32,000 bases of DNA from an uncultured Nitrososphaerota archaeon (GTDB lineage: Archaea > Korarchaeota > Korarchaeia > Korarchaeales > Korarchaeaceae). Below, piece after piece: positions 19,872 to 24,397 of this stretch. The notes below the pieces were generated by a model. The model did not search any database. It saw only the letters and a program-made list of their open reading frames with translations, and had not been told where the DNA came from. Both the position numbers and the translations under genes were made by a program. The stretch's first letter is position 1. Each line of letters begins with the position of its first letter. The stretch covers positions 1 to 32,000 of the forward strand of contig CAYZRF010000003.1 in NCBI GenBank assembly GCA_964480775.1. The letters are read 5' to 3'.

Positions 19872-21086
19872 CTATCCTGAGGTCACAGAAATCCAAAAGT
19901 CATATTCTTCTTTAGCTCTCTGTATCTCTGACTTGAAACCACCTTCTACAAGATAACCATCCCACTCTTCAACGTATTTCTCCAATATTGTGCTCTCGCT
20001 CGCTTTTGCCAAAAAGTATAGGAGCCTTATGTGTAGTCTATGATATCTTTCGCTTGCTATTCTCGTATTGTAATATTGTTGATGGGTTCTGGAGTTCTGA
20101 TCGCTGAGAAGGGAATATGCTGACCAATATCCCAGATCATACTTTGGAAGAAGCAACTCTAGTGTGTTAATTCCAGAGTAGAACGTGTTTAGTGCGGCGG
20201 AATCTTCTATCAGCTGGGAATATATCCATAAACCCTTTAGAGATAGCATAAATCCGTTCAAAACTAAATCATACGGTGCATTTGAGTATTCTAAGTAGAA
20301 CGGACCAAAATCAAGTTCGGCTCTAAAACCTCCTTTTTCAAAAGGAACTTGGAACGAGTTGGCTAGAAGTATAGCTGCTCTTTTGAATTCATATTCCCCA
20401 GTGATCGAATATGCGATGGCAAAATAGGCACAACCTATGCCTTGGGATATAGAAGAGATCCAAGGTATATCCTCATTTTCCCAGGCAAAGTAGAACTTAA
20501 AGACCCCGTACTCTAGGTCGCCTATGTTTTTATCCTCTACGAATAACAGCATGTCTCTCATTACTTCTAAAAAGCCACGGAGGTTCTTCTTATATTCAAA
20601 AAGCTCAGTTGCATAATTCAGGGCATTTGTTGGGTGGAAATTGAAGCCCTGACCCTCTATGTATACGAAAGGAAAACTTAGAGAAGTGTCAAAAAATCTT
20701 TCGAAGAGAACTGGCTCCTTTTGACTTGAGTTTATGTATTTTAGGTTCACTTCCACTGTTTTTTCCAAAATAAATAAGTCTATTTTGCTTAGTCCTTTGG
20801 TTTTAGCCATTTTTTCAAATTTATTGAGAATGGCGGCAAGATCATCCGCAAGCGGATGTCCAGAAGAAATGATTTCTTCTGACTTAGATAAAAGAGAAAG
20901 CAAGTATAGAGCCTCGTCTTTTTCTATCAATTTAGAACTAACAGCCATTTCAATGAAATACGATAGGTTTTCTTCACTTGAAGAGACAAAGTTTGGTTCT
21001 TTGGTTAGATTTGTGATACCGATGAGGATTGTTAGGAGTAAAAGAGCAAACAAAAGCAAGTAAGCCGAAGTTCTTCCTTTAATCAA
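19872..21086 (-). CDS. D-glucuronyl C5-epimerase C-terminal-domain homolog, N-terminally membrane-anchored
   Basis: Strings parallel animal GLCE as I remember it: PWISSISQGIGC (WYSAMAQGQAIS), FYLEYS (WYEEYP), VLNGFMLSLKGLW (VLNGFMYSLIGLY), LPKYDLGYWSAYSL (LPLYDTGSGTIYDL), YHRLHIRLLYFLA (YHTTHINQLQLLS), EKYVEEWDGYL (KEFVKRWKSYL). N-terminal TM AYLLLFALLLLTILIGI. TTG start. Confidence 0.7.
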   Translation of the reverse strand: MIKGRTSAYLLLFALLLLTILIGITNLTKEPNFVSSSEENLSYFIEMAVSSKLIEKDEALYLLSLLSKSEEIISSGHPLADDLAAILNKFEKMAKTKGLSKIDLFILEKTVEVNLKYINSSQKEPVLFERFFDTSLSFPFVYIEGQGFNFHPTNALNYATELFEYKKNLRGFLEVMRDMLLFVEDKNIGDLEYGVFKFYFAWENEDIPWISSISQGIGCAYFAIAYSITGEYEFKRAAILLANSFQVPFEKGGFRAELDFGPFYLEYSNAPYDLVLNGFMLSLKGLWIYSQLIEDSAALNTFYSGINTLELLLPKYDLGYWSAYSLLSDQNSRTHQQYYNTRIASERYHRLHIRLLYFLAKASESTILEKYVEEWDGYLVEGGFKSEIQRAKEEYDFWISVTSG

Positions 21087-21250
21087 CCTAATTAAAGAGA
21101 AACTTAATCTCTTATATCTTTTCTTTTTAATTCATCTTGAGGCTAGAGAAGATTAAAGATGAAATTAAAATGATGAATTTCTCTTGCAGTGCTTTATAGG
21201 CACAGAATGTAAAATCTAAATCTACAATATATTGTAATCTCCAAAGAAAG

Positions 21251-21820
21251 ATGGATAGTAAGAAGATAAGGCTCAGCAAACTATTAAGTCTTGTTTTGAG
21301 GCATAAACCCTCTCTCCTAGGCATCTCGTTGGATTCTGAAGGATTTTCAGATGTTAACATAGAAGAACTAGCTGAAAGGATAAGGAAGCTGAGAGGTTAT
21401 CAATGAGTTACTTCTGAAGATATCGTAAAGATCGTGGAGACGGATGAAAAAGGTAGATTTGAAATAAGAAACGGTAGGATAAGGGCAACTTATGGCCACA
21501 GCATATCAGTTAAGCCAAAATACGAAGAAGCGTCTGAAGTACCTAAACTTTTCCACGGAACAACGAGAAAGGCGTGGGAAAAAATCAAGAAAAATGGGCT
21601 TCTTCCAATAAGTAGGAAATTTGTGCATTTGACGTCTAAACGGGAAATAGCCATAGAAGTGGCTAAGAGGCATGGTAAGAATCCAATTCTGTTAGAAGTG
21701 GACGGAAATTCCATGATTAGAGATGGATTGCTCTTGTGGAAGGCAAGTAACGTTATTTACTTGGCAAAAAAAGTACCACCAAAATACATCAAAGCAATTG
21801 AATTTAAGATGTCCAATTGA
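21251..21820 (+). pseudogene. kptA: RNA 2'-phosphotransferase KptA/Tpt1 interrupted by an in-frame TGA (21404-21406)
   Basis: ATG 21251 gives MDSKKIRLSKLLSLVLRHKPSLLGISLDSEGFSDVNIEELAERIRKLRGYQ, then TGA, then VTSEDIVKIVETDEKGRFEIRNGRIRATYGHS...HGTT...VHLT.... All parts are in one frame (21404-21251=153; 21434-21251=183). The track only reports the GTG-started 21434..21820 fragment, which lacks the LRH catalytic residues. Confidence 0.7.
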
Positions 21821-21884
21821 ACGGGCAAAATATTTCCAAAATCAATATTAAGGATGTCAACTAAGTAAGGTAGGTGAGAAGTAG

Positions 21885-22034
21885 GTGAAGTTCAAGGACC
21901 TAATACTGTTATTAATCGCGCTAATCATCGCCATATTGCTATGGAGGATGCTTTGGTTTATCTTCAGGATTATTGTATTATTAGTAATAGCCTTTGTGAT
22001 TTTTATCTTCCTAAGAAGGATTTTCAGAGATTAG
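21885..22034 (+). CDS. Small (49-aa) two-TM membrane protein, not in the ORF track
   Basis: GTG 21885 lies 8 nt after AGGTGA. The product is VKFKDLILLLIALIIAILLWRMLWFIFRIIVLLVIAFVIFIFLRRIFRD, ending at TAG 22032-22034. It fills the kptA/MBL gap. Confidence 0.4.
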   Translation: MKFKDLILLLIALIIAILLWRMLWFIFRIIVLLVIAFVIFIFLRRIFRD

Positions 22035-22062
22035 ACAAATAGGCATTTCAACAATCCGGTGA

Positions 22063-22707
22063 TTGGGTTTGTCCCTTCTCGTCAAGACATTTCCATTTGG
22101 ACTTTTAAAAAGCAACGTGTATCTGGTATATGAAAAAGAGACGAAAGAAGCTCTGATAATCGATGCAGGCGGGGGATTGCAGTATGTCATGCGGGAGATT
22201 AGAAAAGAAGCCTTAAAACCTAAGTTTATCCTACTAACGCATGGGCACTTTGACCACGTCTTTGAAGTAACTGATTTCAGAAAAACCTTGAAAGTTGAAG
22301 CTTACATACATAGAGAGGATCTTTGGACGCTCGAAATGTTGTGGGATTCAGGTTTATCAATGTTTGGGCTTAAACTGCCTAAACCCATTATAAATAAGTC
22401 CTTCGAGGACGAACCTCTCTTTATGCTTGGTTCCCAGTCTATCAGAGTTATTCACACTCCTGGACACACGCCCGGAGGTGTGTGCTACTTCTTACCAGAT
22501 TCAGGCATATTATTCACAGGAGATACTCTGTTTCGAGGATCAATTGGGAGAACAGACCTACCCGGAGGAAATAGTTCTTCAATGAGGAATTCTCTTAAGA
22601 AATTGTTATCTCTAAATGATGATATCGTAATATATCCTGGTCATGGTTCTCAAACTACGATTGGAAGGGAACGAAGATCAAACCCTTTCTTGGCAGAGTT
22701 AACTTAA
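22063..22707 (+). CDS. MBL-fold metallo-hydrolase (glyoxalase II-like)
   Basis: NVYLVYE...ALIIDAGG, LLTHGHFDH (H-x-H-x-D-H), HTPGHTPGG, GDTLF and PGHG motifs. 214 aa. Confidence 0.85.
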   Translation: MGLSLLVKTFPFGLLKSNVYLVYEKETKEALIIDAGGGLQYVMREIRKEALKPKFILLTHGHFDHVFEVTDFRKTLKVEAYIHREDLWTLEMLWDSGLSMFGLKLPKPIINKSFEDEPLFMLGSQSIRVIHTPGHTPGGVCYFLPDSGILFTGDTLFRGSIGRTDLPGGNSSSMRNSLKKLLSLNDDIVIYPGHGSQTTIGRERRSNPFLAELT

Positions 22708-22744: not shown

Positions 22745-23583
22745 TTAGGTATGAGGTTCTACATGAACTACCACGTCTTTTGTATTTGGGAGTTCCAACT
22801 TAATTCTCCTAAGAACCTCATCGGCTAGATCGTGTGCATTCTTAACACTCATGCTGGGATCAACTAGAACATGTAAATCCAAGAATATATCCACACCAAC
22901 TTTTCTGGCCCTTATCTTGTGAACTTCTCTAACACCTTCAATAGAGTTTACGATTTTACTTACCCTCTCTATGTAATTCGTGCCAGGAGACACATCAGTA
23001 ACTGAATTTTTGATTTCTACAAAGCTCTTAATAGAAGACCAGCCCATAAAAAAGATAACTACAAACAATGCAATCGTATCCCATAACGGGGAAAGGAATG
23101 AAGCCAGCAATACCCCGAGAAATACAGAAATCCCTTCCACAATGTCAGAGATTACATGAAGCTCTTCTGTCTTTACTGCGAGGCCTGAAAACCCCGATTT
23201 TCTGTAGAATACCAAGGCTAACGCGTTGAAAATTAAGGAGATTAATGCATAAGCAGGCGCCTTTTCTCCGATAGAAACTATATGTTCTGTAGTTATTCTT
23301 TCAAATAGAGCATGAATCAGAATTATCATCATAGAGAGAACATAAGAAAAGGTTATGATGGCTGAAAGAGCCTCAAATCTCACGTGTCCATATAGATGAT
23401 CTTCGTCTGGTGGTTCTAAGGTTTTTCTGACAAAAAAGCTGTAAAAAAGGAGGATATCACATTTCCGAAGGAATCAACCCCATCTGCAACTAAAGCTAAA
23501 CTTCCTGTAAATATTCCACCAAACGTACTAACTATTACTTTGAAGCAACTTAACACAAACGGGATCCACAGCTTTTTTGTCAA
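22745..23583 (-). pseudogene. Cation diffusion facilitator (CDF) transporter with a frameshift near 23420-23440
   Basis: The C-terminal frame (track ORF 22745..23383) is open up to 23473 and reads ..RKTLEPPDEDHLYGHVRFEALSA.., the CDF P-x-D-x-x-H-P-Y-G-H-x-R-x-E motif. A second frame (TTG 23583 to TAG 23416) encodes the missing N-terminus MTKKLWIPFVLSCFKVIVSTFGGIFTGSLALVADGVDSFGNVISSFFTAFLSEKP. The two frames overlap across T6/T6/A5 homopolymers (minus strand). Confidence 0.75.
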
Positions 23584-23711: not shown

Positions 23712-24230
23712 CTATTCAAGGGTAGCGTGCCTTCTAGCGAGATCTTCCTCCGTCTTTCCTAATCTTGAGGCCAACTCAGAGATCAAAGCATCGCAAAATA
23801 CAAGAGTAGAGATCTCAAATAGTGTGCCTAGAGGGGTTAGTGGTTCATGAAGTCCCATGATTTGTCTTGATTCGTAATCCATATGGGTGGCTGGCAGAAC
23901 CCTTCCCTTTATAACAACAGAAACATCTGCCATCCTTCCCAATGTAGAATCTGGGTAGCTTGTTATAACTGCAAGAATACCACCTATCTCTTTGACCTGT
24001 TTTGCTATCGTTACAGGATAAAGAGTCTCTCCAGATCCACTTATAACTATCAAGAGATCCCCTGGATCCATTCTAGGGGTTATGGTCTCTCCAACTACAT
24101 GAACTGAAAAGCCAAGGTGCATTAACCTCATAGCGAAGGCCTTTGCAACAAGTCCAGATCTCCCAGCACCTACGATGAAGATCTTGCGGTCTCCTAGCGT
24201 TCTGAGAACTGCCGATGCCAAGAGCTCCAC
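23712..24230 (-). CDS. hxlB: 6-phospho-3-hexuloisomerase (SIS domain)
   Basis: KIFIVGAGRSGLVAKAFAMRLMHLGF, VGETITP, LLIVISGSGET and C-terminal RRHATLE closely parallel archaeal PHI (for example the M. jannaschii enzyme, from memory). The conserved N-terminal helix continues in frame to 24314 without a canonical start (see findings). Confidence 0.88.
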   Translation of the reverse strand: MELLASAVLRTLGDRKIFIVGAGRSGLVAKAFAMRLMHLGFSVHVVGETITPRMDPGDLLIVISGSGETLYPVTIAKQVKEIGGILAVITSYPDSTLGRMADVSVVIKGRVLPATHMDYESRQIMGLHEPLTPLGTLFEISTLVFCDALISELASRLGKTEEDLARRHATLE

Positions 24231-24397
24231 TTCTGACTCATTAATGTCAGAAAGAACGTTTGCTACAGCTTTAACTATCTTCTGAGCTCTGTCTCTGACC
24301 TCCAGAAGTATCCCCTAGAACCATGAGTGCCTAATAATATTATTTTTACACAAGATTTTATTGTTTAGTTGATAACAGAACATTTGTAGGACTGAAA

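Follow-up and report, generated by a model that had tools for sequence, protein, structure and literature searches.

A kptA reading frame with one internal stop codon

The window, the whole stretch of DNA analyzed here, covers the initial 32 kb of a contig of 110 kb (C3) in a metagenome-assembled genome (MAG) of 1.82 Mb (assembly G000; 49 contigs, 90% complete). On its plus strand it carries a reading frame for KptA (Tpt1), an RNA 2'-phosphotransferase, which is open apart from a single codon. The features of this frame are as follows.

21251..21820, plus strand: kptA/Tpt1 (RNA 2'-phosphotransferase) reading frame, 189 sense codons and one internal TGA; matches PF01885 and archaeal Tpt1 chains
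21404..21406, plus strand: in-frame TGA, codon 52; TGG (Trp) in 19 of 19 close homologs
21251..21406, plus strand: N-terminal fragment, 51 amino acids and the stop; contains Arg17-His18 (codons 21299-21304) and is aligned to PhoTpt1 (8tfi)
21434..21820, plus strand: GTG-started C-terminal ORF of 128 amino acids (P0006); contains Arg69 (21455-21457), Arg122 (21614-21616) and the NAD+ lobe

The frame runs from an ATG at 21251 to a terminal TGA at 21818-21820, and its sole internal stop lies in the context RKLRGYQ-stop-VTSEDIVK. P0006, the gene-caller output for kptA, lacks both the Arg-His pair and residues 52-61; it is the entry of a public protein collection for the window's own protein, with 99% identity across 68% of the query. 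A profile search of the genome found kptA in single copy, with no back-up copy.

When the stop is read through, the 189-amino acid product matches PF01885 from profile position 2 to 176 of 177 (129.9 bits against a cut-off of 26, E = 1.4e-37), and the same match was recovered when the whole genome was searched. The best PDB matches are archaeal Tpt1 chains, namely 8tfi (E = 5.8e-37), 9ld4 and 1wfx, with E values ranging from 1e-33 to 6e-37. Since the family match continues across the stop without a change of frame, this is no chance ORF. The original prediction of a full-length KptA in one frame, open except for the TGA at 21404-21406, is borne out by the same match. The best NCBIfam equivalog model (NF002013) scored 193.7 bits, below its cut-off of 231; a score under the cut-off is what a divergent lineage would be expected to give, and it says little.

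An Arg-His-Arg-Arg set of residues forms the essential catalytic tetrad of Tpt1 (PMC10622864). Alignment to PhoTpt1 (8tfi) identified all four in the kptA product as R17, H18, R69 and R122, with R17-H18 aligning with Arg14-His15 of PhoTpt1. The TGA splits the tetrad, leaving Arg17-His18 upstream of the stop and Arg69 and Arg122 downstream, and therefore neither fragment should be active by itself. That the Arg-His pair lies upstream, so that the downstream GTG-started fragment alone would be inactive, had been anticipated, and the 128-amino acid fragment does lack two tetrad members. As sequenced, the TGA prevents an uninterrupted single polypeptide with both lobes, and the locus would be classed as a Tpt1/KptA pseudogene rather than a working member of the family.

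Codon 52 in related archaea

A codon-level alignment was made with the 19 nearest homologs, taken at every level from genus through family, order and class to phylum. TGG is found opposite the TGA in all 19, and the change is therefore a single G-to-A transition from TGG to TGA, as first proposed. The nearest named homologs belong to Guaymas-type 'Thermoproteota archaeon' MAGs and to Candidatus Methanodesulfokora washburnensis, and one database name is 'Candidatus Korarchaeota'; the genome is therefore assigned to an uncultured, Korarchaeia-type hyperthermophile from a hot vent. The Pyrococcus motif YPWVTEEY, given in the original prediction as having Trp at the site, is seen in the alignment with 8tfi (Pyrococcus horikoshii), where the W is aligned with the stop.

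The wider family is more variable. Among 120 database homologs, 32 have W at this position and the others L, Q, K or D, while chain 9ld4 has E. Trp52 is therefore conserved in the clade and is neither family-wide nor catalytic. The expectation that archaeal homologs carry Trp here thus holds for the Korarchaeia-type clade (19 of 19) and some other archaea, but not for archaeal KptA generally.

We searched 43 genomes of the phylum, 33 of which have a kptA match. The internal TGA is private to this genome, being present in none of the other 32 kptA-bearing genomes, and no relative among the phylum genomes searched has a kptA split at codon 52. An alignment of orthologs had been named as a check on the original prediction; in the close relatives the site is Trp and none has a split gene there.

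Distribution of kptA in the phylum

KptA removes the 2'-phosphate that the kinase ArkI places on tRNA U47 in thermophilic archaea (PMC10622864, PMC9095486). Strains of T. kodakarensis with kptA knocked out have been constructed (PMC9095486, methods). No kptA match was found in 10 of the 43 phylum genomes, including 99%-complete ones in one to two contigs. Three phylum genomes encode a broken kptA. In G024 the gene is frameshifted between residues 47 and 58, in G030 it is spread over several frames, and in G027 an exact 243-nt (81-codon), stop-filled insert sits between residues 116 and 117 (L040, C61:26600-27950, minus strand). An archaeon outside the phylum, G037, has a kptA frameshifted at residue 124. 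Given the 10 genomes with no match, the three with broken copies and the T. kodakarensis knockouts, kptA is dispensable, with a defined but non-essential role in archaea.

The G027 gene is from a genome of the same class. Each of its halves is undamaged, the two share one frame, and the insert, folded together with its flanks, is strongly structured (-92 kcal/mol). This insert may be a small mobile element, or it may be comparable to an intron in a protein gene.

We also searched for ArkI (COG2112) in the genome with RIO1, Pkinase and Kdo profiles, and the only matches were a RIO-type kinase and Bud32. The U47 mark requires a variable loop of 5 bases that ends in U47-C48 (rule: PMC10622864), and the tRNAs of this genome have such loops. 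Separately, a short intergenic frame (C13:12383-12532, minus strand; L058:1435-1554) encodes the kinase catalytic-loop-like motif RDLKPEHIL, which is surrounded by stops. The frame may be what is left of a gene for a protein of the kinase fold; nothing ties it to ArkI.

Preservation of kptA and of its surroundings

Counted leave-one-out over the 19 aligned sequences, the TGA is the sole departure of this kptA from invariant or near-invariant columns, where the other sequences have 0 to 8. The protein is 76% identical to that of G004, and the flanking genes are 67-79% identical. The gene order is kept in the genus: an HD-domain protein, a C5-epimerase-like protein (minus strand), kptA, a 49-codon ORF, a metallo-beta-lactamase and a cation-diffusion-facilitator (CDF) protein (minus strand). 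Private substitutions, identity and gene order therefore give no sign of prolonged neutral decay in kptA. As the gene is otherwise undamaged and conserved like its neighbors, the lesion is either recent or artefactual, and the sequence comparison would have the change very young, absent from the organism, or harmless.

The simplest account, to which we give slightly better than an even chance, is a real and recent TGG-to-TGA nonsense allele that knocks out a dispensable kptA. Such an allele could already be fixed, or it could still be segregating. A recent G-to-A transition would have turned the clade-invariant Trp52 codon into a stop, and translation would end after 51 residues. The allele would be null or near-null because the product restarted at the GTG at 21434 would lack the essential Arg-His pair. 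For this account we infer that the base is truly A in the organism, that the interrupted gene makes no active product, and that tRNATrp(CCA), through its basal misreading of UGA, would give only a trace of full-length, wild-type protein.

A consensus error fits the facts nearly as well, as this is a 49-contig MAG and the 5.8-billion-protein collection holds no second assembly of the same species by which the base could be independently confirmed. We regard such an error as possible, if on the unlikely side. The TGA would then have arisen in assembly or base calling, or be a minority variant that entered the consensus, and the gene of the organism would have TGG and be intact and functional. 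The 90% completeness of the assembly is in keeping with this, as is the flawless state of the rest of the gene, which has no further private substitutions and is conserved like its neighbors. So is a homopolymer frameshift that lies nearby, in the first of two damaged or unusual genes downstream of kptA.

22745..23583, minus strand: CDF gene, frameshifted at a T-run near 23,395, with T6 where the protein alignment needs T7
23712-24330, minus strand: SIS-domain (PHI-like) gene, with no ATG, GTG or TTG near the conserved N-terminal start; the ATG close by is shifted out of frame by one base

The CDF gene lies 1.3-2.2 kb downstream of kptA and its T-run frameshift about 1.9 kb away. The ortholog in G004 (L022:4501-5136) has three frame changes, at other places, and no CDF gene was found beside the metallo-beta-lactamase gene of G002 within the DNA fetched. 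Decay of the CDF gene seems to extend across the genus. As it is frameshifted here and independently in a second species, real gene decay does occur at this locus, and the nearby lesion looks biological rather than like an error of assembly. The start of the SIS/PHI gene is also non-canonical in G004, with a CTG conserved in both genomes. The start could be non-canonical or the damage shared; since G004 too has no canonical start there, the defect is not specific to this assembly, which again tells against an error-prone consensus. A view of kptA, CDF and SIS/PHI as three clustered lesions that mark a poorly assembled stretch is thus upheld only in part.

To the same side belongs the nature of the change in kptA, which is a substitution and not the homopolymer-length error typical of assemblies, and so does the low number of broken genes. 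For a survey of orthologs, we took the longest non-overlapping ORFs from 796 kb of the congener G002 and compared them by tblastn, which gave 588 ortholog-like genes and 178,570 aligned amino acids. Broken genes make up about 1% of the 588 sampled (about 30% of the genome surveyed), and all the stop codons are involved, so the consensus is not generally poor. A PadR-like regulator (C48:57-593, plus strand), 81% identical to its G002 ortholog over 179 amino acids, is a second gene that is intact but for one nonsense codon, an in-frame TAG at codon 46 (Glu in G002). One decayed remnant contains three different stops, and about four genes have frameshift-like breaks; an N-gap in the scaffold explains a fifth.

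TGA as a stop codon in this genome

The nonsense allele presupposes that TGA means stop. A single stop in a perfectly preserved gene is also how a functional read-through gene is expected to look, and we therefore examined TGA usage and the decoding apparatus of the genome.

Among ORFs of at least 300 codons, TGA is the stop in 299 of 804 (37%), with TAA in 309 and TAG in 196. Pairs of same-frame ORFs with one stop between them and coding-like composition on both sides number 111 for TGA, 103 for TAA and 90 for TAG, so TGA is not in excess. In the survey of 588 genes, which covers about 2,090 aligned Trp sites, Trp in G002 corresponds to Trp here 1,982 times and to a stop four times. We put kptA into this survey as a positive control and the pipeline recovered it; no other credible gene has a Trp-to-TGA change among those sites. 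Another Trp-to-stop case is a low-complexity, antisense-type ORF and no real gene. A further one is a TAG seven alignment columns into the match, which we read as an over-extended ORF start.

No tRNASec was found above the Rfam gathering score in the 90%-complete genome (best 40.1 bits against 47), and SepSecS likewise had no match. A search of 20900-22300 for SECIS or other Rfam elements gave nothing at E < 0.1, the top result being a sub-threshold LOOT match (E = 0.18). In the 106 nt from the stop onward (21395-21500), folding is no stronger than in shuffled controls (z = +0.58). Neither ARAGORN nor a pattern scan of the genome yielded a credible tRNA with a UCA anticodon.

Two ARAGORN intron-mode calls would bear on this if taken at face value. 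The 'tRNA-SeC(tca)' at C5:68672-68798 (minus strand; L037:373-499) proved to be a tRNAArg(UCG) with a 51-nt canonical 37/38 intron. Its mature length is 76 nt and it has no long extra arm. With the 37/38 splice its loop becomes CUUCGGA, parallel to CUGCGGA and CUCCGGA of the near-identical tRNAArg(GCG) and tRNAArg(CCG). Only this splice suits the intron-containing orthologs in G004 and G002, whose introns are similar in size. The 'tRNA-Trp(cca)' at C15:37317-37409 (plus strand; L038), with a 15-nt intron, is more likely a tRNAArg(CCU). It has CUCCUA before the intron and a body nearly identical to that of the tRNAArg(UCU) at C5:31742-31819. By mislabeling these two intron-containing tRNAArg genes, intron mode may misdirect hunts for suppressor tRNAs.

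The pattern scan instead pointed to a probable tRNATrp(CCA) at C6:73529-73686 (plus strand). It has A73, a 5-bp anticodon stem and two introns, of which one lies in the D-loop region and the other, of 47 nt, after position 37. ARAGORN had called it a tRNAAsp with a 71-nt intron, which is a miscall. Searches of the assembly did not turn up several tRNAs, Met and Ile among them. At the end of one contig (C4:88761-88800, minus strand), 40 nt repeat the 5' half of tRNAArg(GCG) as far as the anticodon loop, and unrelated AT-rich DNA follows. Half of a split tRNA, or what is left of an integration site, could account for this copy.

Functional read-through, in which a real TGA is decoded by the near-cognate tRNATrp(CCA) and the leaky stop turns expression of the eraser down but not off, is in our view improbable. 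Insertion of Trp by tRNATrp would give back the exact ancestral protein, and the frame downstream of the TGA is fully preserved. In bacteria and eukaryotes tRNATrp is known as the main natural suppressor of UGA (see PMC4150775, PMC13092985), and a 4-bp anticodon stem of tRNATrp(CCA) has been linked with UGA decoding (PMC13092985). The probable tRNATrp here, however, is normal, with its CCA anticodon and 5-bp stem. The absence of the TGA from the other kptA-bearing genomes gives no sign of selection for the stop, the downstream RNA has neither a stable structure nor an Rfam element, and TGA serves at no other Trp position surveyed. The only archaeal read-through of stop codons shown so far is that for Sec and Pyl (PMC8211752). 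The stronger version, in which a real TGA is tolerated because useful read-through by tRNATrp keeps the eraser of tRNA 2'-phosphouridine very low in a hyperthermophile, would make this the first archaeal read-through without Sec or Pyl; we consider it more doubtful still. As a programmed event, read-through would sit poorly with a TGA that is private among 33 kptA-bearing genomes and has no structured RNA downstream.

Recoding of the TGA as Sec, a lineage-wide code in which UGA is Trp, and a natural two-piece enzyme are together highly improbable and effectively excluded: the one hint of a tRNASec is the tRNAArg(UCG) on C5, SepSecS has no match, the homologs have Trp and not Cys at the site, TGA is a common stop with neither a UCA tRNA nor a second Trp-to-TGA change beside it, and no relative is split at codon 52, where the C-terminal fragment would lack residues 52-61. 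The original prediction had left three alternatives. Programmed or genome-wide decoding of TGA as Trp is argued against by these results, and a recent nonsense mutation and a base-call error are the two that stand.

Annotation of the locus and comparison with known systems

As it stands the find matters little. It is either a textbook case of a nonsense lesion made by one transition or an error in the consensus, and the gene concerned is dispensable. The locus should be labeled an interrupted kptA and not a 128-amino acid 'RNA 2'-phosphotransferase'. Were the nonsense allele real, the population would be without the only known eraser of the 2'-phosphate on tRNA U47, which fits the patchy occurrence of kptA across Korarchaeia.

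This kptA shares with the archaeal Tpt1/KptA enzymes (PhoTpt1, 8tfi; ApeTpt1 of Aeropyrum pernix, 1wfx; T. kodakarensis KptA) the fold family, a length of about 180-190 amino acids and the catalytic tetrad. The 2'-PO4 cage of PhoTpt1, formed by Lys60, Tyr74 and Arg133, corresponds to Lys67, Tyr81 and Arg140. Unlike in these enzymes, the frame is broken by a TGA at codon 52, and the product falls short of the NCBIfam equivalog cut-off.

The likeness to systems that decode UGA as Trp, such as genetic code 4 (Mycoplasma, mitochondria) and the tRNATrp(CCA) with a 4-bp anticodon stem, lies in having UGA where Trp is expected. In contrast to them, UGA is a frequent true stop here, there is no UCA tRNA, the stem of the probable tRNATrp is 5 bp and no other Trp site is TGA.

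A further parallel is with ordinary nonsense pseudogenes in genes that can be dispensed with, to which we count the broken kptA copies of G024, G027, G030 and G037. The family is patchy, having been repeatedly lost or broken in the phylum. Those copies have frameshifts, an insertion or several lesions, whereas this one has a single point mutation and no other decay. Compared with them, and going by its sequence, this kptA would represent the youngest stage of such a loss, or a lesion that is not real.
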